Origin: an uncultured Nitrospirales bacterium
Lineage (GTDB): Bacteria; Nitrospirota; Nitrospiria; Nitrospirales; NS-4
NCBI GenBank assembly: GCA_964568195.1
Contig: CAZMPH010000005.1
Coordinates: forward strand, 1 to 36,653
Reading direction: 5' to 3'
Length of the DNA stretch: 36,653 bases
Part shown: positions 3,065 through 21,452 of the stretch, piece by piece
Layout: the number at the start of each line of letters is the position of its first letter
Position numbering within the stretch: position 1 is the stretch's first letter
Translations under genes and position numbers: made by a program
Notes under the pieces: model-generated
Databases searched by the model: none
The model's input: the letters and a program-made list of their open reading frames with translations, nothing else
What the model was told of the DNA's origin: nothing

Positions 3065-3065
3065 G

Positions 3066-4211: not shown

Positions 4212-4235
4212 GGCTCTTTCCTTCCAGTCATCCCG

Positions 4236-5072: not shown

Positions 5073-5076
5073 GGGG

Positions 5077-7874: not shown

Positions 7875-7882
7875 GCTGTCCT

Positions 7883-8671: not shown

Positions 8672-9777
8672 GACCGCTTCTCCCGGCAATAGTCGGCGAC
8701 GATTCCGAGGATCGCTTCCGCGGCATGGCCGTCGCCGTAAGGCTGTCCCCGTTCGTGGGGAACCTCTTCGAGCGCCAAGCGAGCCGCCGCCTCAACGGCG
8801 TCGTGGGCCGTCCCGGCCACTCGGTTCCACCCCGCCTCCACCGTTTCCACCCACTCGGTCTCGTTCCGCAGGGTGACGCAGGGAACCCCCAGCAGGAACG
8901 CTTCCTTCTGGACTCCTCCAGAGTCGGTCAAGATCAGCCGGGCGTGCCGCTCGAGCATCAGCATCTCATGGTAGGAGACAGGCGCAATCAGGCGGACCGG
9001 CCCGGAGACGTGACCAGCCCCTGTCGCGTCCAGCACCGCCCGCGTGCGCGGATGCAGCGGCACCACGATGGGCAGGCCGAGTCGCCCGAGGGCCGACAGG
9101 ATGCCCGTGACGGTCTCGGGGCGATCGGTCGACTCGGCGCGATGAATCGTGGCCAAGGCATACTCGCCTGATTGCAGCCCCAACTTGGCCAGGATGCCGG
9201 TCCTCTCCTCGGCCTTACGGAGATTGAACACCAGCGAGTCATACATGACATCGCCGACGAGATGGACCCCGGCAGTAATCCCTTCGCAACTCAGGTTCTT
9301 CACAGCGCGCGTGGTCGGACACAGCAACAGCATCGAGAGATGATCGGCGACCACGCGGTTGATCTCTTCAGGCATGGCCCGGTTGAAGCTCCGGAGCCCG
9401 GCTTCGACATGCGCGACCGGCAAACCGAGCTTGCTCGCCGCCAACGCCCCCGCCAGCGTCGAGTTCGTGTCGCCGTACACCATCACAAGGGCCGGCCGCT
9501 CGTCCTGCATCACACGTTCCAGTCCCTCCAGCATCCGACCGGTCTGCTGCCCGTGCAGACCGGACCCGACGCCCAGATGATGTGACGGCTCCGGAATAGC
9601 CAATTCCCGGAAAAAGACGGCGGACATGTTGTCGTCATAATGCTGGCCCGTGTGAACCAGGACGTCTTCGATCCGACGGCCACCGGAGACCCGTTCATTG
9701 TACGCCGCGATCGCGCGCGAGACGACGGCGGCCTTGATGAACTGCGGGCGAGCGCCCACGACCGTGAGGAGCTTCAT
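8668..9777 (-). CDS. wecB: UDP-N-acetylglucosamine 2-epimerase, non-hydrolysing (WecB/WbpI family)
   Basis: MKLLTVVGARPQFIKAAVV, HTGQHYD, VYGDTNSTLAGALAA, HVEAGLRSFNRAMPEEINR and LTDSGGVQKEA. The internal ATG at 9777 forms an ATGA overlap with the upstream stop. The track's 42-aa 5' extension overlaps the acetyltransferase gene. Confidence 0.9.
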   Translation of the reverse strand: MKLLTVVGARPQFIKAAVVSRAIAAYNERVSGGRRIEDVLVHTGQHYDDNMSAVFFRELAIPEPSHHLGVGSGLHGQQTGRMLEGLERVMQDERPALVMVYGDTNSTLAGALAASKLGLPVAHVEAGLRSFNRAMPEEINRVVADHLSMLLLCPTTRAVKNLSCEGITAGVHLVGDVMYDSLVFNLRKAEERTGILAKLGLQSGEYALATIHRAESTDRPETVTGILSALGRLGLPIVVPLHPRTRAVLDATGAGHVSGPVRLIAPVSYHEMLMLERHARLILTDSGGVQKEAFLLGVPCVTLRNETEWVETVEAGWNRVAGTAHDAVEAAARLALEEVPHERGQPYGDGHAAEAILGIVADYCREKRS

Positions 9778-10373
9778 GCGCGTTCCTCCTCGACCAGCCC
9801 GGCGCGAGAGCGCCGGTATCCGGCCCCACAGACCTGGCAGGACACGCGCGTTCGCCCGCTCTTGACCGGGAGTTTCAATTTGATGCCGCACCGGCACATC
9901 CACCCCTGCTGCCGGCCGGGGTTACCGGTGACCAGCGCAAAATCCGGAACATCCCGGGTCACGACGGCGCCCGCCCCGACAAAAGCGAAGCGCCCGATGG
10001 TGAGCCCGCAGAGAATCGTGGCGTTGGCTCCAAGGGTGGCACCCTGCCGGACCAGCGTCGGACGATATTCGTGCTTGCGCGAGATGCGGCTGCGGGGATT
10101 GATCACATTCGTGAAGACGACCGACGGCCCGCAAAACACGGAGTCCTCCAGCGTCACGCCGTCGTACACCGAGACGTTGTTCTGGATCTTGACGCCGGCG
10201 CCCACCACGGCGCCAGGAGCGATATAGACGTTCTGGCCGATGGAGCAGCGCGGCCCCACCGTCGCGCCCTTCGCAATATGCGAGAAATGCCAGAGCTTCG
10301 TCCCCTCACCGATCGCGCCGGGGTCATCAACACAGACCGTCTCGTGCGCCCAAAAGCCTCGGTCGCCGTCCAT
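9774..10373 (-). CDS. Left-handed beta-helix (hexapeptide repeat) sugar N-acetyltransferase, WbpD/WlbB-like, with a C-terminal CxC...CxxC tail
   Basis: Hexapeptide repeats in IGEGTKLWHFSHIAKGATVGPRCSIGQNVYIAPGAVVGAGVKIQNNVSVYDGVTLEDSVFCGPSVVFTNV and ATLGANATILCGLTIGRFAFVGAGAVVTRDVP. Tail reads GWMCRCGIKLKLPVKSGRTRVSCQVCGAGY. The internal ATG at 10373 (MDGDRGFWAHETV) lies 2 nt after the upstream stop at 10376. Confidence 0.8.
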   Translation of the reverse strand: MDGDRGFWAHETVCVDDPGAIGEGTKLWHFSHIAKGATVGPRCSIGQNVYIAPGAVVGAGVKIQNNVSVYDGVTLEDSVFCGPSVVFTNVINPRSRISRKHEYRPTLVRQGATLGANATILCGLTIGRFAFVGAGAVVTRDVPDFALVTGNPGRQQGWMCRCGIKLKLPVKSGRTRVSCQVCGAGYRRSRAGLVEEERA

Positions 10374-10375
10374 GG

Positions 10376-11407
10376 TCAGCCTTTCACCGTCACCGGCACG
10401 CCGTCCAAGTCCAACGACTGCTGGGCGGCCGTCAGGACCCGGATCACCTGGAGGCCGTGGGCTCCGTCGCTGAGCGGGACGGACTTCCCGCGGATGCAGT
10501 CCAGAAAATGCCGGCACTCAGCCCGGAGCGGCTCGCCCGTGCCGGTGTGCGGGATCAGGATATCCCCGAATCGCACGCGCAGGTAGTCGTCGGAGGAGAC
10601 GGCCTCCGGACGGACGTCCACGCCCTTGTCGTAAATTCTGATCTTGTCCGTTGGTTCCATGTCGTCGAACACAACCATCTTCCGGCTCCCCACCACGGTC
10701 GTCCGCCGGACCTTATGGGGATCGAGCCAACTCAAGTGGATGTGGGCCATTTTCTTTCCCGGAAAATGGAGGGTCACGAAAACCACGTCCACGACACCCT
10801 TCTGAAGATACGCCGCGCCCTTGGCCGTGACCACCGCCGGCTCCGCGGCGAACAGATGGATCGCCACGGCGACGTCGTGCGGCCCGAAGCTCCACAAGGC
10901 ATTCTCGTCCTTGCGAACGCGCCCGAGATTCAGCCGCTGGCTATAGAGGTAGAAGAGCTCGCCGATGTCCCCCGACGAGATCAAGTGCTTCATCTTGATG
11001 ACCGCCGGGTGGTACAGCAGCAGGTGACCCACCATGAGGCGTCGCCCGGTCCGCTGCGCCACTCGGACCAACTCCTCGGACTCGGCCGCCCGCAGCGTCA
11101 TGGGCTTCTCCACCAGCACGTGCTTGCCCGCTTCCAGCGCCTGACGCGCCTGCTCGAAACGTTCCGACGCGAACGACGCGATGGACACGGCCTCCACGGA
11201 GGCGTCCCTCAGGATTTCCTCATAGCGCGTCGTCGTCGTCACGCCAGGGTATTGTGCCCGGACGGCCTCCAACCGCGCGTCATCGAGATCGCAGACCGCA
11301 ACCAGCCGCGCGCCCTTCATCTGGGCGAAGGTCCGCACGTGGTTCCTGCCCCATTCCCCCGCGCCCACCACCGCCACCCGGACGGCTTCCGGTTCTTGCG
11401 TCGTCAT
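10376..11407 (-). CDS. Gfo/Idh/MocA family NAD(P)-dependent sugar oxidoreductase (WbpB-like)
   Basis: N-terminal Rossmann motif VAVVGAGEWGRNHVRTFAQMKGARLVAVCD, then HVLVEKPM and a C-terminal alpha/beta dimerisation domain. Its position directly upstream of the acetyltransferase and epimerase fits a nucleotide-sugar modification set. Confidence 0.8.
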   Translation of the reverse strand: MTTQEPEAVRVAVVGAGEWGRNHVRTFAQMKGARLVAVCDLDDARLEAVRAQYPGVTTTTRYEEILRDASVEAVSIASFASERFEQARQALEAGKHVLVEKPMTLRAAESEELVRVAQRTGRRLMVGHLLLYHPAVIKMKHLISSGDIGELFYLYSQRLNLGRVRKDENALWSFGPHDVAVAIHLFAAEPAVVTAKGAAYLQKGVVDVVFVTLHFPGKKMAHIHLSWLDPHKVRRTTVVGSRKMVVFDDMEPTDKIRIYDKGVDVRPEAVSSDDYLRVRFGDILIPHTGTGEPLRAECRHFLDCIRGKSVPLSDGAHGLQVIRVLTAAQQSLDLDGVPVTVKG

Positions 11408-11417
11408 GTCCGCCCCC

Positions 11418-12185
11418 TCATTTGAAGTCCCGTCGTTGGAAGATCACGCAGGCCAGGGTCAGAATCACCGCGCTATAGGTTACTCCATAGGCCACCGCGG
11501 ACACGAGATACAGGGGTTCGATCGGCAGCCCATACACCGCCGGGCCCTTGACGTTGAAAAACTCGAGGTTGGGCAACGTATAGTAAAGCCCGTCCAGGAG
11601 GAGCTTGATCAACTCGCTCTGCAACTTGGCGGCCAGCACGTGAAGGTCATCGGCCAGATGTCCGATGGCGTAGATCGCCAACGTGAACGTCGCGCTCAAG
11701 GTCGGCGTGGTGAACGTGGAAAACATCACCGCCACGGCGGTGATCACCAGGAGTTCCACGAAGATCAGACCGATGGCCTTCAGCAAGGCCGGTTCCAGCC
11801 CTACCTGGCCGATGAACAGCGTGAGGAAGAATCCCGCCACCATGATGGAGACGTTCACGAGAAGGGTCAGCGTGAGGCCGGCGTACTTGCCCAGAAGAAA
11901 TTGGTAGCGGGGAATCGGCTTCGCGATGATCGAATAGATGGTGCGTTTTTCGATTTCCTTGCTGACCAGGCCGATCCCGACAAAAATCGCAATGAGGACG
12001 CCGAACAAATTGATGCTCGCCAGGCCGAGGTCCTGAATGATCTTGGCCCGTTCGCCCATGGTGAGCGTGCCCAGCAAAATCGAACTCACGATCAAGAGCA
12101 GTCCGAAGAACACCAGGTTGTAGAGAATCTTGTCCCTCAACGTTTCGCGGAACGTGTTCAGCGCGATCACGCCGATCCGGTTCAT
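11418..12185 (-). CDS. ABC-2 family transporter permease (NosY/COG1277-like), substrate unknown
   Basis: Six hydrophobic spans, with TFRETLRDKILYNLVFFGLLLI and KEIEKRTIYSIIAKPIPRYQFLLGKY motifs. ATGA overlap with the ATPase stop (12182..12185). Confidence 0.75.
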   Translation of the reverse strand: MNRIGVIALNTFRETLRDKILYNLVFFGLLLIVSSILLGTLTMGERAKIIQDLGLASINLFGVLIAIFVGIGLVSKEIEKRTIYSIIAKPIPRYQFLLGKYAGLTLTLLVNVSIMVAGFFLTLFIGQVGLEPALLKAIGLIFVELLVITAVAVMFSTFTTPTLSATFTLAIYAIGHLADDLHVLAAKLQSELIKLLLDGLYYTLPNLEFFNVKGPAVYGLPIEPLYLVSAVAYGVTYSAVILTLACVIFQRRDFK

Positions 12186-13114
12186 GCCCGTCCGCCCCCG
12201 ACTTCTTTCAGGAAGAGATCTTCCAGGGAACGCTTGTGCGGGACGAGCGAGACCAGCCGCCCCCCGTGCCGGCGGACCACCTCCAGGAGAGAATTCACTT
12301 TGGCCTCGCCGTCCAGCTTGATCAGCACCTGCGCGCCCCGTCTCACCACCGCTCCGCCCAGTCGCTCCGCCTCCTGGACGCCGGCCTCCGCAAGTCCCTC
12401 CGCGATGACCTCGACCGACGTCACGGCGGACGCGTCCACCAACTCCTGGACTTTCCCCACGGCCTGGAGACGCCCTTTGACCAGAATACCCACGCGATCG
12501 CAGATCATCTCCACGTCGGGCAGGATGTGCGTGCTGAAGAAAATCGTTTTCCCTGTGTCTCGGAGATGAAGAATGATGTCCCGAACATCGCGTCGCCCGA
12601 TGGGGTCCAGTCCCGACATCGGCTCGTCCAGGATGACCAGTTGCGGATCGTTGATCAGGGCCTGGGCCAGGCCGATCCGCTGCAGCATCCCCTTGGAGTA
12701 TTTCCGCAAAGGCAGGCCGCGGGCTTCGGTAAGCTTGACCATCTCCAGCATCTGTGCGATTTTCTCAGCCAGTTGGCGTCCCCCAAGGCCGAAGAGCTGG
12801 CCGTAGAACCGGAGAAACTCCTCGCCGGTCAGGTACTCGTAGAAGTACGGCGCCTCGGGAAGAAAACCGATCCGGTTTTTGACCTCCACATCGCCGATCT
12901 CCCGGTCCAGCAGCCACGCTGTGCCGCTCGTCGGATAAATCAGCCCCAGCAGGATCTTGATGGTCGTCGTCTTACCCGCCCCGTTCGGACCGAGAAACCC
13001 GAAGATCTCGCCTTGCTCCACATCCAGGTCCAGCCCATCCACGGCCTTGCTGCGCTGCCGCCGGAGTCCCAGACGAAATTCCTTGGTGAGCCCGCTGATC
13101 CGAATGGGCGTCAT
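12182..13114 (-). CDS. ABC transporter ATP-binding protein (COG1131-like)
   Basis: Walker A in GFLGPNGAGKTTTIKILLGL, signature in YSKGMLQRIGLAQAL, Walker B in LVILDEPMSGLD, and H-loop in IFFSTHIL. ATGA overlap at 13111..13114. Confidence 0.9.
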   Translation of the reverse strand: MTPIRISGLTKEFRLGLRRQRSKAVDGLDLDVEQGEIFGFLGPNGAGKTTTIKILLGLIYPTSGTAWLLDREIGDVEVKNRIGFLPEAPYFYEYLTGEEFLRFYGQLFGLGGRQLAEKIAQMLEMVKLTEARGLPLRKYSKGMLQRIGLAQALINDPQLVILDEPMSGLDPIGRRDVRDIILHLRDTGKTIFFSTHILPDVEMICDRVGILVKGRLQAVGKVQELVDASAVTSVEVIAEGLAEAGVQEAERLGGAVVRRGAQVLIKLDGEAKVNSLLEVVRRHGGRLVSLVPHKRSLEDLFLKEVGGGRA

Positions 13115-13989
13115 TGCGGCCTCCGCTTGCCGTACACTTTCAAACGATCCTTCATCTCGCTACTCCGCACGGACTGGGTCTGCGGATCATACAGGTACTG
13201 CCCACCGAACGGCTCGCGTGGCAATTCCCGCAGGAGACCGGCCTCCATCAGATCCTCCAACCGATCGGGCGCTCGCTTGTAACGCTCTCGGTACCGGCTG
13301 ACGGCCTCCTCGAGCAACTGGAGATCCCGTTCGACCACCACTTCCTTCAGACGCTGCTCCAAGACGCGTTTCACGTTCTCATCCGCGGTCTGGGCATACA
13401 TCTGGGCGAGAAAATCTATGGCGACTTGCGGTTCTCTGGCCGAGACATAGAGCCTGGTGGCAAATGGCGCGAGGTACTGGGGCGCCCCCGGAAGGCGGGA
13501 TGCCCTGGCGATATAGTCAGCCGCCTTGGCGTCATCGCGCAACTCGAAGTAGTAGTTGAACCCCAGCAAGAAGGGAAGCGCCCAGTAGTCGGGATTGTGC
13601 TGGATCCCTTTCTCCAATACCCGGTTGCTCTCCTCAACCAGAACCACCAGTGTCACCAGGGCAACGCCTCCGACCTCATAGACGCGCGTAAACTTGGGAT
13701 CCAATGTAGTGATGACATCCAACGCTCGGTAGATCCACTGACCGGCCTCTTCCATCACCTTGCGCTCGCCCATCGCCTGGATGGCCTGGATCCACAGGAA
13801 GTCCGCCACGACCTGCTCGTACCCCAACACCGCCACCCGGAGGTACTCGCCTTGCGGTAGGTACATGAACCGCTGCAGCTTGGGCGTGGCGGCCCGCTGC
13901 TGATCAAGCCGGGTCTGAATGAAGTACAGTCCCAGGATGAGGACCAACCCGGTCATCACCAGGACCTTCAGCCGCGCGGTCTCGCTCAT
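13111..13989 (-). CDS. Membrane-anchored helical (TPR-like) protein of unknown function
   Basis: A single N-terminal hydrophobic span (LKVLVMTGLVLILGLYFI) is followed by an alpha-helical repeat-like body. The internal ATG at 13989 (MSETARLKV) forms an ATGA overlap with the stop of the upstream Wzy_C-TPR gene. The C-terminal segment RAPDRLEDLMEAGLLRELPREPFGGQYLYDPQT resembles the YP..L..L...P.DPWG..Y.Y motif of T2SS major pseudopilins by eye only. Confidence 0.6.
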   Translation of the reverse strand: MSETARLKVLVMTGLVLILGLYFIQTRLDQQRAATPKLQRFMYLPQGEYLRVAVLGYEQVVADFLWIQAIQAMGERKVMEEAGQWIYRALDVITTLDPKFTRVYEVGGVALVTLVVLVEESNRVLEKGIQHNPDYWALPFLLGFNYYFELRDDAKAADYIARASRLPGAPQYLAPFATRLYVSAREPQVAIDFLAQMYAQTADENVKRVLEQRLKEVVVERDLQLLEEAVSRYRERYKRAPDRLEDLMEAGLLRELPREPFGGQYLYDPQTQSVRSSEMKDRLKVYGKRRPQ

Positions 13990-15953
13990 GGGACGGGCAC
14001 CATGGCCAGCGACTTCCGGAGGTGATCCGGATTCACTTCCAGATACTGGCGGTCCACGTTTGTCAAGTTCCACCCTCGGTAGCGTTCTTGAATCCTGAGA
14101 ATCTCCGCATACTCCCGCGCCGCGACTTCCTTCCGACCGAGTTCCAACGAGAGCTCGGCCAGCTGGGCACGGGCCGGCAGGAAATTCGGCTCGTAGCTCG
14201 TCGCGCGGCTGAACAAGGCTTGCGCCTCACCCAAGCGACCCTCGGCGCGGCGAAGCTTTCCCAGTTCAAGGTAGTTGAACGGCGAATAGGGATCCAACCG
14301 GATCGCTTGCTCATAGAAGGCCGCGGCCTTTTGCAGGAGCGCCTTGCGGTGCTCGCCGGAACCGGCGCGCTCGGCAAGCACAACATGGAGCGTGCCCAAG
14401 CGATGGGCAAACCGCCCATCCAGGGGATTCAGGTCCAACCCGATCATCAGCTCGTCCACCGCCTTGAGCACCCATTGCACCTCGCCGGATTGATGATACA
14501 ACCGAACCTCCGCCAGCGCCACCGCGTCACGGTAAGCGGCAAGGCCCGGCTCGATGACCGTGGCGCGGTGAAACCACTCCAAGGCAGCGCCCTCCCGGCC
14601 GAGCGTCGCTTCGTTTCCGCCCCTCTCAAAGGCATACCAGGCCGCCGGCGGCTGTATGATGAGCAGCGTCAGCGCAAGGGTCAAAACGCCGACCAGCGCC
14701 ACGCGCGCCGGAGCATAGGGAAACGGCAACACCCAAACAGGGGCATATTCCGGTTCCCTGAGCCGTTTCAACACCAGGATCAAGCCGGCAAATAGAAGCA
14801 TAAGCAAAACCAGTGCCGGTTCATGAAATACGGAGTCCACAGCCGCATGGACAAAAAAACCGAGAATCCCGCCCGACAAACCGACAACGAGCCCTCTTTC
14901 CCACGGCTCCAGGTTGCCTTTCAAGACCCCTCGGACTTCCCTGGCGAACAGCGTCGCCGCAGCCAGAAAAAGCCCCAGCCCCACGATTCCCAGTTCCGTC
15001 GCCATTTGAAGGTATTCGTTATGGGCGGATTCCGCCCGTTTCCCGTAGCGACTGATGGCGCCTTCGACGGGAAAGCGGTACTGGAATGACGTGTACTTGT
15101 AGAGACCCAGCCCTACTCCCCACGGATGATCGGCGATCCGCTGCAAGGAATTCTTCCAGATGTCCAGTCTGGTAAACGCATAGGGGTCCTTCGCTTCTAT
15201 CGTCAGGACACGCTGTTGCAAAGGCGTCGGAACCAGGGCCCCTGCCAGCAGGCACAACGCCAGGACACCCAGAAAAATCCTTCTGAACCGAGACAGGCCG
15301 ATAAAGGTCACAGCCGCCACGAACGCCAGCAACGCTCCCCTCGATTGGCCGAGGAGAAAGGCCAACCCGACGGCTCCCGCCGTGAACCAGAGAAAAAAGG
15401 ATTCCCGCTTGGAGTGATCGTTCTGCCGACGGTAACACAACAGGCCAAACACAACCGCGAACACAGCCACTTCATAGGCCGCAAAGAAATTGGCGTTGAA
15501 GAAGGTCCCGGTGGGTCTTTCCGGCACGGTCAAGACGTATTGATACACGCCGACCGCGGCTTCGAGCAATCCCACGATCAGGACAACCGCCACCAGCCTC
15601 CGTATCTGCTCGGCCGACTCTACAAGGTGCAGGACCACGAACAGCATGACCGCATACGTCAGGATGCTCAGCAACCCTTGCAGGCTCACGGCGGCGTAGG
15701 GAGAACGAAGCACGGAAAGAACGGCCCACCCCACAAACGCTCCGATCGCTAAGAAGAGGGGGCTGCGCCGCAGGGACAGCCCTCCTGACTTCATCGAGAA
15801 GAATACCCATGCCGTCACGGCGGCGAGAAGGATGAGGCGGATAACAAGGACCGGGAAGTAGGTGGTTCCGCCGTCAATCAGTGGCGCGAAGAGAGTGAGG
15901 CCACCCAAGACGACGAGTGGGCTATGGGCAAGAAAGGTTTTTCGGGCTGGCAT
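13986..15953 (-). CDS. O-antigen ligase / Wzy_C family polytopic membrane protein fused to a C-terminal TPR domain, 655 aa
   Basis: About 10-12 hydrophobic spans, with the Wzy_C-type loop GKRAESAHNEYLQMATELGIVGLGLF (conserved His). From about residue 430 onward there are TPR repeats (ALEWFHRATVIEPGLAAYRDAVALAEV..., AAFYEQAIRLDPYSPFNYLELGKLRRAEGRLGEAQALFSRATSYEPNFLPARAQLAELSLELGRKEVAAREY). Confidence 0.8.
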   Translation of the reverse strand: MPARKTFLAHSPLVVLGGLTLFAPLIDGGTTYFPVLVIRLILLAAVTAWVFFSMKSGGLSLRRSPLFLAIGAFVGWAVLSVLRSPYAAVSLQGLLSILTYAVMLFVVLHLVESAEQIRRLVAVVLIVGLLEAAVGVYQYVLTVPERPTGTFFNANFFAAYEVAVFAVVFGLLCYRRQNDHSKRESFFLWFTAGAVGLAFLLGQSRGALLAFVAAVTFIGLSRFRRIFLGVLALCLLAGALVPTPLQQRVLTIEAKDPYAFTRLDIWKNSLQRIADHPWGVGLGLYKYTSFQYRFPVEGAISRYGKRAESAHNEYLQMATELGIVGLGLFLAAATLFAREVRGVLKGNLEPWERGLVVGLSGGILGFFVHAAVDSVFHEPALVLLMLLFAGLILVLKRLREPEYAPVWVLPFPYAPARVALVGVLTLALTLLIIQPPAAWYAFERGGNEATLGREGAALEWFHRATVIEPGLAAYRDAVALAEVRLYHQSGEVQWVLKAVDELMIGLDLNPLDGRFAHRLGTLHVVLAERAGSGEHRKALLQKAAAFYEQAIRLDPYSPFNYLELGKLRRAEGRLGEAQALFSRATSYEPNFLPARAQLAELSLELGRKEVAAREYAEILRIQERYRGWNLTNVDRQYLEVNPDHLRKSLAMVPVP

Positions 15954-16002
15954 GGGGGCACGTCACGACTGCCATCAGCCCCTTGTGGTTTGCACAAAGC
16001 AG

Positions 16003-16031
16003 GGGCGAGGGGTCGTCACGACCCCTCGCCC
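16003..16031 (-). terminator. GC-rich hairpin, probable intrinsic terminator of pilin gene 1
   Basis: A perfect 13-bp inverted repeat, GGGCGAGGGGTCG-tca-CGACCCCTCGCCC, lies 22 nt downstream of the pilin stop (16054). On the minus strand it is followed by CTGCTTTGTGC, which is only a short U-run. Confidence 0.6.
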
Positions 16032-16053
16032 GCCCTGACCCAACCAGCTAGGA

Positions 16054-16551
16054 TTATTTTGCGACGTCGTTATTGGTGTTGGTCAGGTTTCTGACATCGT
16101 TGATGACAAACTCATCGCACGTGGCATCGCCGTCAATATTCGCCTGCGCGCCGGCCGTAAATCCGACTCCATTCGCCACGGAACCAGCCGGTACAACCCC
16201 GCCTGCAAAGGTGCCTCTATTAGTGAGGCATGCGCTTCCACCGGCGGACGGGGTAATCAAGAAACCCACGGCGTTCTGTCCGCCGTAGTAGAGGTCATAC
16301 CTGGAAGTTCCGGCGGGCTTGTAGCCGAGCGTGTCGGCGGTCGGCACGCTGAAGGTGTTGTTCTCGGCAAAATACGAGGTGGCGGTCGTGAAGATACCGC
16401 CGAGGTTCACCTTGGCTTCCGATTGCCGCGCTTTTGCTTGATAGGTTAGAAAGTTCGGGATGGCGATGGCCGCCAGAATCCCGATGATCGCCACCACGAT
16501 CATCAACTCGATCAAGGTGAAGCCCTGATCCCCTTTCATCCGTTTAAACAT
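16054..16551 (-). CDS. pilA: Type IV pilin (prepilin with an N-terminal cleavage/methylation motif), 165 aa
   Basis: MFKRMKGDQG|FTLIELMIVVAIIGILAAIAIPNF is a canonical class III signal (G-F, Glu+5). There are two Cys residues near the C-terminus (SACL...ATCDEF). A strong SD (AAGGAGG) lies 8 nt upstream of ATG 16551; the track start at 16554 is a GTG one codon upstream. Confidence 0.9.
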   Translation of the reverse strand: MFKRMKGDQGFTLIELMIVVAIIGILAAIAIPNFLTYQAKARQSEAKVNLGGIFTTATSYFAENNTFSVPTADTLGYKPAGTSRYDLYYGGQNAVGFLITPSAGGSACLTNRGTFAGGVVPAGSVANGVGFTAGAQANIDGDATCDEFVINDVRNLTNTNNDVAK

Positions 16552-16677
16552 CACTCAGTCCTCCTTGTCCCTAAAAGGTTTGCCCCTCGCGACCGTCCCC
16601 GCAACCGGCGGCGATCGCACCCCAATATCATCCTTAACTGTCCCCGCATCGGCAGGCACCGCTTAGATTTAAAGTAA

Positions 16678-16693
16678 AGCAATACCAATGCCA
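16678..16693 (-). promoter_or_regulatory. Sigma-54 (-24/-12) promoter of pilin gene 1
   Basis: The minus strand reads TGGCATTGGTATTGCT, against the consensus TGGCAC-N5-TTGCW, with correct GG-N10-GC spacing. It lies about 125 nt upstream of the ATG. Type IVa pilin genes are classically RpoN/PilR dependent. Confidence 0.55.
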
Positions 16694-16773
16694 TCCCCAT
16701 TCGCCTCGAACAGGCATAAATCAAAGCAGTTAGCACAACCTTTCAACCTACAACCGGATCTCCCGGTCAATTT

Positions 16774-16800
16774 TTGTCTCGCATTAACCGCCAAATTGTC
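16774..16800 (-). promoter_or_regulatory. Paired TTGTC-N17-TTGTC element, candidate enhancer-binding-protein (PilR-like) upstream activating sequence (UAS) for pilin gene 1
   Basis: The plus strand reads TTGTCtcgcattaaccgccaaaTTGTC, with 22 nt start-to-start (two helical turns), 81 and 103 nt upstream of the -24 element. The same arrangement occurs upstream of pilin gene 2. It contains the TGTC core reported for Pseudomonas PilR sites. Confidence 0.4.
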
Positions 16801-16809
16801 ACCACGCAT

Positions 16810-17322
16810 CTATTTGGCAACGTCGTCCATCGTGTTTGACAGAGTTCTAATATCGTTGATGATCCAGTCATCGCAGGTGGAATCGGAGTCGACATTTCCT
16901 CTGGCGGCAGCCGTGAATGTACTTGGCGTCGCAGCCACAGGAGGTGGTCCCGGTGGAGCGACAGTTACATTGCAAGGAGCCGTCGCAGTGCTCCCACCGG
17001 GCAAGGCGGTAGGGGTGCCACCAATATCGTACCAATACGAATACTTCGGCGACCCGCTTATCACAAACTCAATAGGGGCGGTGCTTGAAAATTGGAGGCT
17101 TACCGGACTTTGCGCTTGCGAGGCAACCATTAATTTTGAAAACATGTCCCCAAGAACAAGCCTGGCCTCTGCCTGCCGGGCCTTGGCCTGATACCGCATG
17201 AAGTTCGGAATCGCGATCGCCGCCAGGATCCCGATGATCGCGACGACGATCATCAGTTCGATTAAGGTGAAGCCTGCCGACCCTTTCAACGAAAGGCCCG
17301 GCACGCGCGACGCTCTCCCCAT
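16810..17322 (-). CDS. Type IV pilin paralog, 170 aa, with a divergent central region rich in Ala/Pro/Ser/Thr
   Basis: ...SLKGSAG|FTLIELMIVVAIIGILAAIAIPNF. The C-terminal tail STCDDWIINDIRTLSNTMDDVAK matches ATCDEFVINDVRNLTNTNNDVAK of pilin 1. The track start at 17394 overlaps the sigma-54 promoter, so I use ATG 17322. A GTG at 17304 preceded by GGGAGAG is an alternative that gives an 11-aa leader. Confidence 0.85.
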   Translation of the reverse strand: MGRASRVPGLSLKGSAGFTLIELMIVVAIIGILAAIAIPNFMRYQAKARQAEARLVLGDMFSKLMVASQAQSPVSLQFSSTAPIEFVISGSPKYSYWYDIGGTPTALPGGSTATAPCNVTVAPPGPPPVAATPSTFTAAARGNVDSDSTCDDWIINDIRTLSNTMDDVAK

Positions 17323-17387
17323 GGACTCTAATTCACGTTCATCCAGCACTCGGCAGCTTAACCCCCTCGGCAGTACATACTCCGTTA

Positions 17388-17403
17388 AGCACACCGTCTG
17401 CCA
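17388..17403 (-). promoter_or_regulatory. Sigma-54 (-24/-12) promoter of pilin gene 2
   Basis: The minus strand reads TGGCAGACGGTGTGCT. GG and GC are at the canonical spacing, and the -12 element is GTGC instead of TTGC. It lies about 66 nt upstream of ATG 17322. Confidence 0.5.
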
Positions 17404-17485
17404 TTACACAATGCGCATGAAACGTCAGGAAAATCAAGGTCTCATGAACTCTACGTCCCTCTTGCCGAAAACTGAGAGGCGTTTC

Positions 17486-17512
17486 TTGTCGCACCACGAA
17501 CAAAAAATTGTC
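17486..17512 (-). promoter_or_regulatory. Paired TTGTC-N17-TTGTC element, candidate UAS for pilin gene 2
   Basis: The plus strand reads TTGTCgcaccacgaacaaaaaaTTGTC, 83 and 105 nt upstream of the -24 element. This is the same geometry, within 2 nt, as at pilin gene 1. Confidence 0.4.
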
Positions 17513-17536
17513 CGGATTCCGAACACAGCCTTCCAC

Positions 17537-19525
17537 TCAGCGATGTGGAATTTCGAAGACATAGACACCGTTACTCGTGAACAACAGCTTCAGCGCCCCT
17601 GGCAAAGCCTTCAACCGGCGCGCGTTCATCTCGGCGTCAACGCCTGAAAACGCCAGCACCCCATACCCCTCATGCAGACGCCTGAATTCGCGGACGTTGA
17701 GCACCACGTGCGTGAATCCCTCTGCAACCAGCCTGTCTGCCAGTGCCTTCGGGGACGAAGACTCCTGCACCCAACGATGCAGCGGATGGCGGTCATACGC
17801 CGTAGGCGCCATCGCCTCGCGCGCGAAATAATACGGTCTGGATTCCCCGATAAAAAGAATGCGCGCATCAGGAGGAATGGTCTCCCGCACGAAACGGGCA
17901 GCGCTGAAATGATCCAGTTGCTTGGCCAAATACCGATCGGCGGTCTCCCGCCCAAGCGCGACGTCGTATGAAGAAAAGACCGCCGCATGCTGGTTAATGA
18001 ACCGCGCCGAACCTCCGATCCCGACAGGCAGGAACAGCAACAGCGCCACCACTGGGGCGGTTTGTCCGAGGCGCAACACCACCCCGACCAGCACAGCCAA
18101 CCCTATTGCCATCGCGGGCGCGAAGAACCTGGCGGTCGGAGAAACGGCTATCCAGCCTGCTCCCGCCACCAGCGCAAAGAGTGTCGCAGCGCCGCTCAAG
18201 CGGCACTCCTTTGCGCCGCCGCCGAACACCCGCGTGATCGCCGGCAAGATCACCAGCAGACACGTGGCCGCGACCGCCAGCACCCCCGCATCCGAAGCGG
18301 AACCGAAGCGTTCGGGATGTTGCACGAGATCCACCGGCAGGCGCAACAACCCCTCCCACCCCAACCCGCCCGTTCCATACGGCAGGGCCCCTTGCACTTT
18401 GGCTTGACTCTCCTCGCTCCAGGGAACACCACCGAGCAGACCGTACGCCAACGGATAGATGGGGTTGCCCGTGTGGACATAGGCCCACGCCCACCACGGC
18501 GCGATGGTCGCCACAACAATCACCAGCGATCGCCTGACGTCCCGCAACGGCCACCCGGCTGCGAGAGCGGCGACAAGCGCCGCTGCCGCCCAATACAACC
18601 CGGACAACTTGACTGAGGCCGCCAGTCCTAATACCAGCCCAAAGGACAACCAGGGTCTTCGCTCGGCTTGAGGAGCAACCAGGAGCACGGCAGCGATCAC
18701 GACCGCAAACGTCAAACCGGTTTCGGCAAACGGCACCGTCGCGAGAAACCAGAACATCGGCGACGTCGCCAGAGCCACAACGACGAGTGCCGCGGCCCAC
18801 GGCGCAGATCTGGGCCACGCGATCGCGTCGGCCACGCCCCAGACGCCAAGCACGCACATCACCCAGACAGCGAAAGCGGTCGCTCTGGCGCCGAGATCCC
18901 CTCCTAACGCCATGCCCCAGGCCAACAACAGATCCGAGGCATGCGGCATCAGTGTGAAAACAACCCACGGCTCGGCCCTGAGCCCACCGGTCACGAGTAC
19001 GCGCTGCGGTATGACCAGGTGATATTCCAGCTCATCAAAGAACGTGGGGGGAATCGTGGCCCACAACCAGGCCACCAGTAGCGCGCCGCCCATCATCAGG
19101 CCGCCGACTGTTTCCTGAAGGATTCCGCATGAGGGACGGAAGCGGAAGGCGGCGCGAAGGGCCAGGAGCAGTCCGTAAACAAGGAGCGGGAGCGCGGCGA
19201 TCCCGCTGACCCAGAAGACACCACACATCGCGCTCGACACGGCCAGCAGAGACAGACAGGCGAGCCCCACGCCGACTTGAACGGCCAAGCCGATCACGTG
19301 GGAATGTTCGGCTTCCCCGAAGAGTCCACCGCAGGCCCGGTCAACCAACGCGCCGGCCGCATAGGCCATGATCAGAAAAGAGGCTGGAATCGCCAATAGC
19401 CAGAGACGTGCCGCGTCCACCAACGCGGTCCCGAAGAGCACCACGGCAGATGAGATCAGCAGCGAGAGGCAGGGGGCCGGCCAGGCAGCACGCAAGTCAG
19501 CCCCTGCCGGAGGTGGATTAGGCAC
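17537..19525 (-). CDS. Polytopic membrane protein, putative GT-C-fold glycosyltransferase (ArnT/PMT-like), 662 aa
   Basis: More than 10 hydrophobic spans and a soluble C-terminal domain of about 150 aa. An acidic loop motif follows an early TM segment (IPPTFFDELEYHLVIP), reminiscent of the DE..Y / DxD first-loop motif of GT-C enzymes. GTG start with no clear SD, so the start is uncertain. Family assignment is by eye only. Confidence 0.55.
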   Translation of the reverse strand: MPNPPPAGADLRAAWPAPCLSLLISSAVVLFGTALVDAARLWLLAIPASFLIMAYAAGALVDRACGGLFGEAEHSHVIGLAVQVGVGLACLSLLAVSSAMCGVFWVSGIAALPLLVYGLLLALRAAFRFRPSCGILQETVGGLMMGGALLVAWLWATIPPTFFDELEYHLVIPQRVLVTGGLRAEPWVVFTLMPHASDLLLAWGMALGGDLGARATAFAVWVMCVLGVWGVADAIAWPRSAPWAAALVVVALATSPMFWFLATVPFAETGLTFAVVIAAVLLVAPQAERRPWLSFGLVLGLAASVKLSGLYWAAAALVAALAAGWPLRDVRRSLVIVVATIAPWWAWAYVHTGNPIYPLAYGLLGGVPWSEESQAKVQGALPYGTGGLGWEGLLRLPVDLVQHPERFGSASDAGVLAVAATCLLVILPAITRVFGGGAKECRLSGAATLFALVAGAGWIAVSPTARFFAPAMAIGLAVLVGVVLRLGQTAPVVALLLFLPVGIGGSARFINQHAAVFSSYDVALGRETADRYLAKQLDHFSAARFVRETIPPDARILFIGESRPYYFAREAMAPTAYDRHPLHRWVQESSSPKALADRLVAEGFTHVVLNVREFRRLHEGYGVLAFSGVDAEMNARRLKALPGALKLLFTSNGVYVFEIPHR

Positions 19526-19593: not shown

Positions 19594-21372
19594 CTACAAG
19601 GATTTCTTGGACTGCCTGTGCTGCGCTTTGCGGATCCGTTCATCGGCGGCCGGGTCCCAGAACCCCTTTGCCTTGAACCGATCCGTCAGCTTTCTGTTCG
19701 TCGGATCGAGCTCCAGCGAGCGAAGCCATGCTTCGCGGGCATCGGACAGGAGGTTATTGGTGAGACAGATTTCGCCGAGGTGCTCGAAGAACACGGGGTC
19801 GTCGTGCACCACGGCGACGGCTTGCTTCATCTCCTGAAGCGCTTCCTGCGACCGCCCCATCTTGAAATAGGCCCACGCCAGGCTGTCGAGGTAGTAGCCG
19901 TTCTGCGGCTTGACCGCGAGCGCCCGCTGAATCAGCACAACCGCCTCGTCCAGTCGCATGTCACGCTCCGCAAACGTATAGCCGAGATAGTTCAGGGCAT
20001 CGGCATGCTTGGGTTCCAACCGGATGGCTTCCTGCATCTCGCTGACCAGTTCGTCGAACCGCCCCAGCTTGTCATAGGCAGTGCCCAGGTTGAAGTGGAA
20101 GTCGGCGCTGTCGGGATGCCGCTGTAGCCCTTCGCGAAAGGTGGTGACCGCTTCTTCATGCCGCAACGCCTGCAGCAGGGCCAGGCCCAGCATGAGATAG
20201 GCATCCGGCAGCTTGGGATTCAGGGCGATCACCTGGCGAAAATGCGGCAGCGCCTCCTCGGTTCGCTTCAGGCGATACAGCAGATACCCGAGATGGAGGT
20301 GGGCATCGGCGAACCGCTCATCGGTCTGGATGATCGCCCCGTATTCCGCAATGGCTTTCTCGTAGTCCTTCATTTCCTCATAGAGGTAGGCCAAGTGGTC
20401 GCGCACCCGCAGTTCGTCCGGCCGCAGCGCCAGCACGAGTTTCATCTGCTCGACCGCTTTCGGGAACTCCTTCATTTCACCGTAAATCAGGCCGATGCGA
20501 AGCTGGGCCTCCACATCCCCGGGAGACTCCGCGACGGTCTCGCGCAACAAAGCAAGCGCCGGCTCATAGGCCTTCTGCGTCAACAGAATCCGGACCAGTC
20601 GGTGGCGCACTTCACGATTGCCCCGATTGATCTCCTGCAGATATTTTCGGAGCGTCGCAATGGCCTGCGCGGCATCGTCCTGGGCTTCGAGCGTCGCCGC
20701 CAACCCCAGATAGGCCGGGTCAAAGCCGGGATTGACGGCCAGGGCATCCCGATAGGCCTGCGCGGCCCGATCCCACGCCTTCTGCTCGACCAGTACGTGG
20801 CCGAGGTACAGATAGCCGGTCGGCGACGATACCGGCGACAGCGCGATGCCTTGACGGAGAATCCGCTCCGACTCCTCATACCGTTTTTGACCGGCCAGGA
20901 GCATGCCCATCGAATAATAGGCCTGCGCTTCCTGCGGCCGTAACGCCACGATCAGCTCGTAGTACCCGATCGCGCGATCGGAACGGCCCGTGGCCACAGC
21001 GACAGCGGCCAGGATGTTCAAGGCCGGGAGGCTGGCGGTGTCTTGGGCAAGCACTTCTTCGGCATGGGCCTGGGCTTTTCCATGCTCACCCCGGGTATGG
21101 TAGAGGGTCGCCAGGCGGAGGTGGAGCGCCACAGAGGCGGGATCAAGCGCAAGAGCCTTGTGGTACTCCTCCTGAGCCGTCCCGGCATCATTGGCCAGCT
21201 CGGCCTGGTACCCGCGCATGAAATGGTAGTAGGCCTGCGGGTCAGGGACTCGCTGCGATGGAGCGGCGGCGGCACCCCGTTCCGTGGCGTGAACAACAGA
21301 CGGGACGCCGACCGTCATGGCGGCCAGAAAGCAGCAAGCCCATCGGCTTAGTCGTAGAAAGGTAGTGGGCAT
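19594..21372 (-). CDS. Secreted tetratricopeptide-repeat protein, 592 aa
   Basis: Signal peptide MPTTFLRLSRWACCFLAAMTVGVPSVVHA|TE, followed by more than 12 TPR units (for example AQEEYHKALALDPASVALHLRLATLYHTRGEHGKAQAHAEEVL). I use ATG 21372, which is preceded by GGAGG at a 5-nt spacing. The track start at 21411 adds 13 residues before the signal-peptide n-region. Confidence 0.8.
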   Translation of the reverse strand: MPTTFLRLSRWACCFLAAMTVGVPSVVHATERGAAAAPSQRVPDPQAYYHFMRGYQAELANDAGTAQEEYHKALALDPASVALHLRLATLYHTRGEHGKAQAHAEEVLAQDTASLPALNILAAVAVATGRSDRAIGYYELIVALRPQEAQAYYSMGMLLAGQKRYEESERILRQGIALSPVSSPTGYLYLGHVLVEQKAWDRAAQAYRDALAVNPGFDPAYLGLAATLEAQDDAAQAIATLRKYLQEINRGNREVRHRLVRILLTQKAYEPALALLRETVAESPGDVEAQLRIGLIYGEMKEFPKAVEQMKLVLALRPDELRVRDHLAYLYEEMKDYEKAIAEYGAIIQTDERFADAHLHLGYLLYRLKRTEEALPHFRQVIALNPKLPDAYLMLGLALLQALRHEEAVTTFREGLQRHPDSADFHFNLGTAYDKLGRFDELVSEMQEAIRLEPKHADALNYLGYTFAERDMRLDEAVVLIQRALAVKPQNGYYLDSLAWAYFKMGRSQEALQEMKQAVAVVHDDPVFFEHLGEICLTNNLLSDAREAWLRSLELDPTNRKLTDRFKAKGFWDPAADERIRKAQHRQSKKSL

Positions 21373-21423
21373 GGCCGCCTCCGGAAGCATAACGCGAAGT
21401 TCGATGGACATTGCTCTCAGCGG

Positions 21424-21452
21424 ATTATAGGGGCGCCCCCGAGGAGAGTCAA
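21424..21452 (-). promoter_or_regulatory. Near-consensus sigma-70 promoter (TTGACT-17-TATAAT) for the TPR / GT-C-like genes
   Basis: On the minus strand, the -35 TTGACT is at 21452..21447, the spacer is 17 nt, and the -10 TATAAT is at 21429..21424. The -35 hexamer overlaps the dnaB stop codon (21449..21451). The predicted leader to ATG 21372 is about 45 nt. Confidence 0.55.

Follow-up and report, generated by a model that had tools for sequence, protein, structure and literature searches.

The stretch of DNA analysed here (36,653 nucleotides, hereafter the window) carries a locus in which membrane glycosyltransferase genes bracket two type IV pilin genes, and we estimate a probability of roughly 0.45 that this locus is a pilin-centred periplasmic glycosylation module mixing features of the pilin-modifying enzymes TfpO and TfpW. 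Read 5' to 3' on the minus strand, it comprises a gene for a 662-residue protein of GT-C fold, pilin 2, pilin 1 and a gene for a 655-residue protein that joins a Wzy_C domain to TPR repeats. A sequence-only reading had proposed this bracketed arrangement, which was borne out, all four open reading frames being present on the minus strand at the coordinates below. The module is favoured by the linkage to pilin genes, the catalytic residues of the Wzy_C protein, the side of the membrane on which its TPR domain lies, the overlaps between downstream genes, the GT-C fold, the repeated insertion of GT-C genes and the existence of YfhO-Wzy_C fusions. The pairing of pilin and transferase is thus a promising candidate, though not a proven one, for a new type of system that coats pili with sugar.

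19594..21411, minus strand: 605-residue TPR protein (TPR matches in Pfam and NCBIfam; type_IV_pilW and Tgl models below their cut-offs)
17537..19525, minus strand: 662-residue polytopic protein of GT-C fold (AF2 and Foldseek), with acidic motif D164-E165
17509..17525, minus strand: terminator-like hairpin with T-run, 3' of the GT-C gene (from sequence)
17388..17403, minus strand: sigma54-type -24/-12 promoter-like element upstream of pilin 2 (pattern match)
16810..17322, minus strand: pilin 2, type IVa prepilin (N_methyl), 170 residues, two Cys, Pro/Ala/Ser/Thr-rich C-terminal loop, C-terminus DDVAK
16678..16693, minus strand: sigma54-type -24/-12 promoter-like element upstream of pilin 1 (pattern match)
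16054..16551, minus strand: pilin 1 (start 16551/4), type IVa prepilin (N_methyl, Pilin_PilA), two Cys, C-terminus NNDVAK
16003..16031, minus strand: 13-bp GC-rich hairpin directly 3' of pilin 1, a terminator or attenuator before the Wzy_C-TPR operon
13986..15953, minus strand: Wzy_C-TPR protein, 655 residues, 13 TM helices (Pfam, AF2 model, topology)
13111..13989, minus strand: 292-residue N-terminally anchored TPR-like protein in the PilG position, true start 13989
12182..13114, minus strand: ABC transporter ATPase, DrrA/GldA-like, with 4-nt overlaps at both ends
11418..12185, minus strand: ABC-2 permease (ABC2_membrane_2, Pfam)
875..11407, minus strand: glycan biosynthesis and export genes

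Membership of the 655-residue protein in the Wzy_C superfamily follows from its Pfam match (residues 194-330, E=1.7e-20, 73.8 bits against a cut-off of 31.7), which recurs in 16 of 16 orthologs scanned, and from equivalents of the E. coli WaaL residues R215, R288 and H338. In the window protein this catalytic set is R205, R262 and H311, the latter two carried on a periplasmic catalytic loop. All three align with the catalytic residues of WaaL from Cupriavidus metallidurans (7TPG; domain profile match E=2e-7), the sole solved relative that the sequence search turned up. Among family sequences from several phyla, the equivalent residues (R210, R267 and H317 in P0339 numbering) are invariant. Matches to the PglL_A (PF15864) and Wzy_C_2 models were absent at E<=0.01 for the 655-residue protein and at E<=10 for 16 family members. 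The TPR repeats, matched by Pfam at about residues 520-625, belong to a periplasmic domain of about 200 residues (about 454-650), and since the AF2 model and hydropathy both yield 13 TM helices, this domain and the catalytic loop are predicted to share the periplasmic side. WaaL is built differently. It has 12 TM helices and about 410-420 residues; 7TPG (413 residues) has its membrane domain aligned up to residue 385 and lacks the large periplasmic C-terminal domain that the window protein has in common with TfpO, PglL and TfpW. We know of no linkage between WaaL and pilin genes.

A pilin gene paired with a Wzy_C-TPR gene occurs in Nitrospirota, in a Thermodesulfobacteriota-related cluster and in an unassigned clade, whereas in candidate division TA06 the Wzy_C gene lies beside pilus genes only. 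In the window, pilin 1 and the Wzy_C-TPR gene share their orientation and are 100 nt apart. Of 70 Nitrospirales genome loci whose upstream sequence reaches 700 nt or more, 69 have a pilin directly upstream of Wzy_C-TPR, and the same order holds in most metagenome loci having upstream sequence. The adjacency is kept across about 150 loci and is therefore far beyond chance. Outside Nitrospirota, Wzy_C-TPR genes stand behind pilA in pilBTCSR-pilA clusters. Locus L091, in a cluster also containing a Thermodesulfobacteriota protein, reads pilB-T-C-S, two pilins, Wzy_C and a PilG-like gene; the Wzy_C gene is placed after pilins in L092 and L093, and pilins lie directly upstream in L089 and its nearest clade (9/9 loci). 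In TA06 the Wzy_C gene comes after pilB-T-C-S-R, where no pilin was called, and sugar and Wzx genes are next. One further family member, in L090, has no pilin nearby.

Does the Wzy_C-TPR gene instead belong with the glycan genes? The sequence-only reading had placed it at the head of a glycan operon. Glycan genes do lie downstream, but the passage is not direct, because a PilGHI-like ABC module that had been missed lies in between, joined by 4-nt overlaps. The ATG of the 292-residue protein overlaps the Wzy_C-TPR stop codon (4 nt), and 20 or more orthologous loci preserve this junction. Homologs of the 292-residue protein, whose C-terminus carries a GspG-like motif (LEDL..G.L..LP.EPFGG.Y), come after the Wzy_C gene in L089, L091, L092, L094 and L096. 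Judged from the gene junctions, Wzy_C-TPR, the PilG-like protein, the ABC ATPase and the ABC-2 permease form a translationally coupled unit. Beyond it lie WbpB/D/I-like genes for a GFO/IDH/MocA oxidoreductase, a hexapeptide acetyltransferase and a UDP-GlcNAc 2-epimerase, then genes for Wzm, a Wzt that bears a Wzt_C domain, a GT4 glycosyltransferase, a methyltransferase, a radical SAM/SPASM protein and a heparinase II/III-like protein.

A Wzm/Wzt O-polysaccharide cluster adjoins the Wzy_C-TPR region in most Nitrospirales loci, with the Wzt_C-bearing Wzt, GT4 and methyltransferase genes. Such a position is the likely one for a WaaL gene, which counts against a pilin module. Conceivably, then, the Wzy_C-TPR protein is a WaaL-type LPS O-antigen ligase of the adjacent ABC-dependent pathway, joining the polymer exported by Wzm/Wzt to lipid A-core, with the GT-C enzymes as Gtr-like modifiers of the polymer in the periplasm and the pilins as inherited synteny that shares no chemistry with it. 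An ABC-dependent pathway runs without a Wzy polymerase yet still requires a ligase. Because O-antigen, too, is modified by GT-C enzymes (the Gtr type), finding GT-C together with Wzy_C is also in keeping with a role in LPS. The identity of the sole sequence-related structure as WaaL and the absence of the PglL-specific motif from the 16 members point the same way, and simple sequence comparison cannot separate WaaL from O-oligosaccharyltransferases (PMC3643930). We consider such a ligase distinctly unlikely, however: the linkage to pilins and pilBTCSR is also found in other phyla with a different set of glycan genes alongside (Wzx type, WecA-like, AsnB), the 13th TM helix and the periplasmic TPR domain are not WaaL features, and GT-C insertions are found on the pilin side.

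The ABC module suggests another comparison. The M. xanthus genes pilG, pilH and pilI stand behind pilA; they code for an ABC transporter and are needed for piliation (PMC3724824 citing Wu 1998; PMC6060248). In G. sulfurreducens, pilA (GSU1496) is followed, a few genes on, by xapD (GSU1501), on which about half of the exopolysaccharide depends; one preprint reports no detectable PilA in the mutant. At both loci an accessory protein, an ABC ATPase and an ABC-2 permease follow the major pilin, with polysaccharide genes thereafter, the same order as in the window. The likeness to PilGHI is one of gene order and protein classes, accompanied by a Myxococcus-type PilA N-terminus on pilin 1 (profile match, E=3.6e-30). 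The Wzy_C-TPR/PilG-like/ABC-2 unit might thus be a pilus-biogenesis or pilus-associated polysaccharide module, analogous to Myxococcus pilGHI and perhaps to the xap exporter of Geobacter, whose lipid- or polymer-linked glycan would be needed for pilus assembly or matrix anchoring rather than being placed on the pilin. The coupling of the unit and its retention across phyla directly after pilA argue for this, as do the piliation phenotype in Myxococcus and the exopolysaccharide and PilA phenotypes in Geobacter. We nonetheless judge it unlikely. A search from the L091 family member yielded no Geobacter protein, the Wzm/Wzt pathway of the window needs no Wzy-type polymerase, and the repeated insertion of GT-C genes beside pilins would be left unexplained. 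In the literature examined, the Myxococcus and Geobacter loci are not described as having a Wzy_C-TPR gene, and the phenotypes reported there concern piliation and exopolysaccharide rather than glycosylation of the pilin.

The GT-C nature of the 662-residue protein had been set as a test by the sequence-only reading, and the fold was found. The protein has no Pfam match, while relatives carry DUF8201/PF26626. Its AF2 model (pLDDT 80.7, pTM 0.83) returned GT-C proteins as all of the top 16 Foldseek PDB matches, with probabilities of 0.96-1.00 and modest TM-scores of 0.2-0.5; they include ArnT (E=2e-5), DPY19, STT3, AftA/B/D, ALG9/12, PimE and PMT. Across 21 homologs, D164 never varies and E165 is retained in at least 90%; both lie in a loop after helix 136-157 that is predicted to be periplasmic, as fits the acidic motif that GT-C cores carry in their first periplasmic loop. 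TfpW, the arabinosyltransferase of P. aeruginosa group IV pilin, offers a comparison: it is polytopic, encoded immediately 3' of pilA, has a periplasmic C-terminal TPR domain like the window Wzy_C-TPR protein, and its GT-C fold was modelled on ArnT (bioRxiv 10.1101/2020.04.19.049825). TfpW, however, unites GT-C and TPR in one protein. In the window this combination is absent, the TPR domain being on the Wzy_C protein and the GT-C protein being encoded separately, upstream of the pilins, with an alpha/beta C-terminal domain devoid of TPR repeats.

Is the position of the GT-C gene meaningful? Pilins without an extra gene make up 81 of 88 loci, and every extra gene inside the pilin locus encodes a GT-C of the DUF8201 or YfhO type, on the pilin side and not the glycan side. 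The DUF8201 type lies upstream of the pilins in the window, L005 and L085 only and between pilins and Wzy_C in L125, whereas 10 or more loci have the YfhO type upstream of the pilin. These placements point to at least three separate insertions into the pilin locus, and the Wzy_C family studied also includes YfhO-Wzy_C fusion proteins. The position of the 662-residue protein's gene beside the pilins might also be a neutral rearrangement in one sublineage, the substrate of the enzyme being LPS, peptidoglycan-associated glycans or another envelope polymer. We regard this as quite possible, if short of probable. The placement is restricted to a minority of lineages, homologs in L081-L084 and L087 lie elsewhere in the region beside small GT2 and YfhO genes, the homolog in L086 has an unrelated context, and the GT-C gene has its own terminator-like hairpin. 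Against neutrality, L125 represents a second independent placement and the YfhO type was independently inserted at the same spot, where no other kind of gene is found. The hairpin that splits the GT-C gene from the pilins and the location of most relatives elsewhere beside GT2 also count against the pilin-centred module; a homolog of the small GT2, the candidate partner for making a polyprenyl-phosphate sugar donor, was not found in the window, L005 or L085.

Which pilin residues could accept a glycan? An Ala/Pro/Ser/Thr-rich stretch had been proposed between the two cysteines of pilin 2 and as lacking in pilin 1. The stretch exists, but it spans the first Cys instead of lying wholly between both, and it is not special to pilin 2, since similar small-residue-rich loops occur in most orthologous pilins: per 30 residues of loop, small residues number 23 in pilin 2, 16 in pilin 1 and 12-25, mostly 16-25, in full-length orthologous pilins. 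Known sequons of pilin O-oligosaccharyltransferases lie within or beside disulfide loops rich in Ser, Ala and Thr (PMC9829042). TfpO/PilO (P. aeruginosa group I, Acinetobacter) and TfpM (Moraxellaceae) are such transferases and share with the window a polytopic Wzy_C enzyme with a conserved essential His, encoded immediately 3' of the pilin in the same orientation (PMC9829042; PMC3643930). They are shorter, at 420-470 residues, and lack TPR (PMC9829042), whereas the window protein reaches 655 residues and adds both a 13th TM helix and the TPR domain; the translational coupling to an ABC-2 exporter module is likewise unlike TfpO/TfpM. Moreover, they target a C-terminal pilin Ser/Thr. Both window pilins end in DVAK and have no such residue, so glycosylation in this style is impossible for them; among proximal pilins, 44 of 71 have Ser/Thr directly after the conserved DV. 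PglL/PglO and PglS recognise internal sequons in low-complexity or disulfide-loop regions, and pglL homologs lie beside pilin genes in 21 of 31 cases (PMC3643930; PMC9829042). General O-oligosaccharyltransferases of the PglL type pass an Und-PP-linked glycan to internal Ser/Thr of more than one periplasmic protein. The window protein departs from these enzymes in lacking a PglL_A/Wzy_C_2 signature, in having a TPR C-terminal domain and in its taxa. The earlier suggestion that it is a protein O-oligosaccharyltransferase is therefore partly supported: pilin linkage, the Arg/Arg/His set and the large periplasmic C-terminal domain agree with it, whereas the missing signature and the missing C-terminal Ser/Thr speak against it, and likewise against the module.

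How might a pilin-centred glycosylation module operate? We envision a leaky hairpin after pilin 1, followed by the coupled Wzy_C-TPR/PilG-like/ABC unit. At the periplasmic face, the Wzy_C-TPR protein would take an undecaprenyl-diphosphate-linked glycan via the Arg/Arg/His site common to WaaL, PglL and TfpO and transfer it to a Ser/Thr of the pilin while the latter is anchored in the membrane. The likeliest acceptor would lie in the disulfide loop rich in small residues, so that the site would be akin to the internal sequons of PglS and PglL and not to the C-terminal residue used by TfpO. Docking of the pilin, or of some partner, might fall to the TPR repeats, a role already suggested for those of TfpW. 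The 662-residue protein would use a polyprenyl-phosphate monosaccharide and add a further sugar to pilin or glycan, and the ABC module might supply the lipid-linked donor or aid pilin maturation in the manner of Myxococcus PilGHI. A bolder and, in our judgement, improbable extension is that Wzy_C-TPR joins the PilG-like protein and the ABC-2 exporter in a single complex of the inner membrane. Type IVa pili of Nitrospirota, Thermodesulfobacteriota, candidate division TA06 and lineages related to them would then share a widespread but so far overlooked step of maturation, in which the complex loads pilins with lipid-linked glycan on their entry into assembly, while a GT-C (DUF8201 or YfhO, sometimes fused to Wzy_C) adds sugars. 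If true, the complex would define a fifth class of pilin O-oligosaccharyltransferase, give the long-unexplained PilGHI-type ABC transporter of Myxococcus a biochemical role and do likewise for the defects in pili and exopolysaccharide seen when Geobacter xapD is mutated.

The terminator-like hairpins after the GT-C gene and after pilin 1 imply that GT-C, the two pilins and Wzy_C-TPR are not one simple operon, and those orthologous loci that were inspected also have a hairpin 3' of the proximal pilin. The two major-pilin genes are each preceded by a putative sigma54-type promoter element: TGGCA-N7-TGCT occurs twice in the window, each time upstream of a pilin gene (chance mean 0.31; two or more matches in 4 of 100 shuffles). 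The element at 17388-17403 supports the ATG at 17322 as the right start of pilin 2. Farther upstream, the 605-residue TPR gene is kept between dnaB and the pilin genes in those Nitrospirales loci that span the region, and its product may be a PilW/Tgl-like pilus accessory.

The two pilin genes of the window are embedded in a minus-strand array, and our re-derivation of its ORFs and domains agreed with the coordinates and domain calls of the sequence-only reading. The features are as follows.

Gene layout and transcription signals
21449-23155, minus strand: DnaB
19594-21411, minus strand: 605-aa TPR protein
17537-19525, minus strand: 662-aa polytopic protein
17388-17403, minus strand: sigma54-type element (TGGCA-N7-TGCT match)
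16810-17322, minus strand: pilin 2
16678-16693, minus strand: sigma54-type element (TGGCA-N7-TGCT match)
16054-16551, minus strand: pilin 1
16003-16031, minus strand: 13-bp GC-rich hairpin directly 3' of pilin 1
13986-15953, minus strand: 655-aa Wzy_C-TPR protein
13111-13989, minus strand: anchored 292-aa protein
12182-13114, minus strand: ABC ATPase
11418-12185, minus strand: ABC-2 permease
875-11407, minus strand: glycan genes

From an overall perspective, this locus is best read as a candidate pilin-centred periplasmic glycosylation module, a reading to which we give a probability of about 0.45. We envision that the Wzy_C-TPR protein would represent a new O-oligosaccharyltransferase architecture, joining a TfpO-like catalytic domain to a periplasmic TPR domain of the kind found in TfpW (bioRxiv 10.1101/2020.04.19.049825) and to coupling with an ABC-2 module, and that GT-C enzymes would serve as optional second transferases. 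Alternatively, it might be a WaaL-type ligase, which we consider improbable. Two points favour this role and hold our estimate for the glycosylation module down: WaaL ligases and O-oligosaccharyltransferases are inseparable by sequence (PMC3643930), and the neighbouring Wzm/Wzt cluster would require a ligase.

A profile of the membrane domain of the Wzy_C-TPR protein matches the WaaL structure 7TPG (E=2e-7), with R205, R262 and H311 aligned to conserved ligase residues, and the equivalent positions are invariant in a multi-phylum alignment. Neither the PglL_A nor the Wzy_C_2 signature was detected in 16 family members, even at E<=10. Searches with the whole protein were governed by its repeats: the full-length sequence retrieved only TPR matches from the PDB, and Foldseek with the full AF2 model, whose catalytic loops are of low confidence, was dominated by TPR proteins and left WaaL unranked against other membrane enzymes. 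AF2 and hydropathy together indicate 13 TM helices whose cytoplasmic loops are rich in Lys and Arg, which puts the catalytic loop (241-312) as well as the TPR domain (~454-650) on the periplasmic side. A Wzy-type polymerase role was rejected, because the adjacent pathway is Wzm/Wzt-dependent; pathways of this kind need no polymerase.

What glycan might the neighbouring genes build? The set at 875-11407 encodes a GFO/IDH/MocA oxidoreductase, a hexapeptide acetyltransferase, a UDP-GlcNAc 2-epimerase, Wzm, Wzt with a Wzt_C domain, a GT4 enzyme, a methyltransferase, a radical SAM/SPASM protein and a heparinase II/III-like protein. The WbpB/WbpD/WbpI-like oxidoreductase, acetyltransferase and 2-epimerase genes point to a di-N-acetylated sugar, and the Wzm/Wzt (Wzt_C), methyltransferase, radical SAM/SPASM and heparinase II/III-like neighbours suggest an O-polysaccharide with a capped end, for which an ABC transporter would be the exporter.

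The association with pilins is conserved in Nitrospirales, the order to which all of the best 80 loci kept from our genome scan belong. Across these loci DnaB, TPR, one to three pilin, Wzy_C-TPR, PilG-like, ABC and ABC-2 genes follow in near-invariant order, with Wzm/Wzt usually coming after them, and in 69 of the 70 loci with enough upstream sequence the end of a pilin ORF precedes the Wzy_C match by 99-566 nt. The 605-aa TPR protein, likewise kept between dnaB and the pilins in Nitrospirales, may be an accessory of the pilus or of a secretin; models of TPR lipoproteins (PilW, Tgl, PrsT) match it with scores under the respective cut-offs. In an exhaustive profile search the Wzy_C-TPR family comprised 201 clusters (50% identity; E<1e-30) from Thermodesulfobacteriota, candidate division TA06 and others, most members having 620-700 aa and the same Wzy_C plus TPR architecture. 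Variants, with P0334, P0340 and P0356 as examples, include tandem Wzy_C-Wzy_C-TPR proteins and YfhO-Wzy_C fusions of 1150-1470 aa with the YfhO part first. In the context of a YfhO-Wzy_C fusion no pilin was within reach; one fusion gene (locus L174) lies directly after uppS-dxr.

Beyond Nitrospirota, the homologous loci have the following gene contents.

Locus contexts outside Nitrospirota
L088 (TA06): pilB-T-C-S-R, Wzy_C-TPR, sugar genes including Wzx; no pilin gene called
L089: pilin, Wzy_C, PilG-like, ABC, ABC-2, AsnB, GT4, WecA-like
L091: pilB-T-C-S, two pilins, Wzy_C, PilG-like
L092: two pilins, Wzy_C, PilG-like, ABC, ABC-2, GT, WecA-like
L093: pilB-T-C-S-R, pilin, two Wzy_C genes, AsnB, methyltransferase, GT4, Wzm/Wzt

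For L089, identity amounts to 33% for the PilG-like protein (E=1e-34), 49% for the ABC and 53% for the ABC-2 protein, and in the metagenome clade nearest L089 pilins lie 40-211 nt upstream in all nine loci with upstream sequence. No pilin was seen in the locus of a further family member, L090. At 6268-9887 of L093, consecutive Wzy_C genes of 578 and 628 aa stand directly after pilA, and a 541-aa protein without a Pfam match replaces the PilG-like/ABC unit.

How might the Wzy_C-TPR protein be tied to the ABC-2 module? The ATG of the 292-aa gene at 13989 overlaps the stop codon of the Wzy_C-TPR gene, an overlap kept in at least 20 orthologous loci, and 4-nt overlaps recur at the two junctions that follow. 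An N-terminal anchor and TPR-like repeats characterise the 292-aa protein, which lacks a prepilin leader and ends in a GspG-like motif. This motif, LEDL..G.L..LP.EPFGG.Y, is conserved in an alignment of orthologs (A4) and is similar to the C-terminal portion of the GspG pseudopilin domain, with weak T2SSG matches in 5 of 20 orthologs. In Myxococcus, pilA is likewise followed by pilGHI, genes for an accessory protein, an ABC ATPase and an ABC-2 permease that are required for piliation (PMC6060248, and the passage of PMC3724824 that cites Wu 1998). In Geobacter, xapD (GSU1501), a few genes past pilA (GSU1496), influences exopolysaccharide, and one preprint reports an effect on PilA levels too. 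Starting from the L091 family member, a homolog search returned 18 proteins, none from Geobacter, so both parallels rest on gene order and literature; we found no paper linking an O-antigen-ligase-like gene to pilA in Geobacter, and the cryo-EM paper on the M. xanthus pilus reports no glycan. The locus might instead be a pilus-biogenesis or pilus-associated polysaccharide module whose pilin stays unmodified, which we regard as unlikely.

If pilins are the acceptors of the proposed glycosylation module, where would they be modified? Both window pilins carry the N-terminal methylation motif and a Myxococcus-type PilA N-terminus (E=3.6e-30 for pilin 1, E=1.2e-21 for pilin 2), and orthologous pilins have two Cys and a C-terminal 'NDV-x' tail in common. 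The residue after 'DV' is Ser or Thr in 44 of 71 Wzy_C-proximal pilins; the window pilins end DVAK, and a TfpO-style C-terminal acceptor was rejected for the window, both proteins ending Ala-Lys. The sequence-only reading had likened a Pro/Ala/Ser/Thr-rich stretch between the two Cys of pilin 2 to the acceptor regions of PglL-type enzymes. The stretch is indeed present but straddles the first Cys, and with 23 small residues in 30 it ranks among the richer examples of a widespread feature (16-25 of 30 in most cases). Known PglS and TfpM sequons lie within or beside disulfide loops of similar composition (PMC9829042). Among the papers listed by our literature searches, none concerned pilin glycosylation in Nitrospira.

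The 662-aa protein had been called GT-C-like, and structure prediction bore this out. It has no Pfam match, only a weak NCBIfam match and no sequence match in the PDB; its Nitrospirota homologs carry PF26626 (DUF8201). An AF2 model built with 21 homologs (pLDDT 80.7, pTM 0.83) gave GT-C proteins as its best 16 Foldseek matches in the PDB (ArnT, DPY19, STT3, AftA/B/D, ALG9/12, PimE, PMT). Across the 21 homologs D164 never varies and E165 is kept in at least 90%, and these matches together with the acidic pair, in a loop predicted to be periplasmic, argue for a GT-C enzyme. In other lineages the DUF8201-type gene adjoins a small GT2 gene and, in one case, YfhO genes. A GT2 next to a GT-C is a customary arrangement, in which a polyprenyl-phosphate-sugar synthase accompanies its GT-C enzyme; no GT2 partner was found in the window.

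GT-C genes have been recruited to the pilin/Wzy_C neighbourhood repeatedly and, judging from locus comparison, non-randomly, as insertions in the pilin locus and YfhO-Wzy_C fusions imply. A DUF8201-type gene stands beside the pilins in the window, L005 and L085 only, and at a different insertion point, between pilins and Wzy_C-TPR, in L125. A YfhO-family GT-C gene of ~800 aa occupies the slot of the window gene in L042, L044, L049, L067 and L072, and YfhO-family genes also lie upstream of the pilin in L039, L051-L053 and L118. Among 88 loci spanning the TPR gene and Wzy_C, seven hold an extra gene, always GT-C; in the other 81 the span of 916-2432 nt leaves room for pilins alone.

Where did the 662-aa gene come from? 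Locus L081 (9218-14030) has the order TPR_21 protein, DUF8201 GT-C, GT2, SLT/LysM; in the window nothing separates the TPR_21 gene (28146-28913) from SLT/LysM (26836-28143), which indicates that the GT-C/GT2 pair has been excised there, the GT-C gene reappearing beside the pilins and the GT2 being absent from the window. About 10 kb from the pilins lie two tandem YfhO-family (GT-C) membrane protein genes (29816-34605, plus strand), beside a methyltransferase gene (29048-29812); in L087 the DUF8201 GT-C and its GT2 partner adjoin a similar YfhO pair. These arrangements suggest that the 662-aa gene moved out of the region around 29816-34605, which would be a variable island for envelope glycosylation.

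Pilin-adjacent Wzy_C O-oligosaccharyltransferases and the GT-C enzyme TfpW are already known. In the literature searched, we found no description of the Wzy_C-TPR architecture, of translational coupling between such a gene and a PilGHI-like ABC module, of its spread across lineages beyond Nitrospirota or of recurrent GT-C insertions at a pilin locus. To our knowledge, nearly all that is known of pilin glycosylation comes from a few pathogens such as Pseudomonas, Neisseria, Acinetobacter and Moraxella, and the PilGHI-type ABC transporter of Myxococcus, recognised since 1998 as required for piliation, has no known substrate. If the module reading is true, a distinct architecture (Wzy_C with periplasmic TPR, ABC-2 exporter coupling and often GT-C) would glycosylate the pilins of environmentally dominant nitrite oxidisers and of bacteria related to metal and sulfate reducers. 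This would bear on Nitrospira pilus behaviour in biofilms and flocs, give the PilGHI-type transporter a testable function and could supply glyco-engineers with a new class of O-oligosaccharyltransferase that brings its own domain for docking substrates. The GT-C-only insertion pattern at the pilin locus makes a clean, falsifiable prediction.

Hairpins and separate promoter-like elements indicate that the GT-C, pilin 2, pilin 1 and Wzy_C-TPR genes form several transcription units, not one operon. The sigma54-type -24/-12 element TGGCA-N7-TGCT has two matches in the 36.6-kb window, one upstream of each pilin gene (chance mean 0.31; at least two matches in 4 of 100 shuffles), which suggests PilR/sigma54 control; neither pilS nor pilR is present within the window. 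A terminator-like hairpin lies 3' of the 662-aa gene. The GC-rich hairpin after the last pilin gene is also seen in the Nitrospirales loci inspected (among L001-L080) and differs in sequence among lineages, so that structure and not sequence is conserved; it is likely a terminator or attenuator setting the ratio of pilin to downstream-operon transcript. Long antisense ORFs are numerous in the window (plus-strand examples: 11406-12569 and 12236-13282) and are not genes, being expected in DNA of ~62% G+C.
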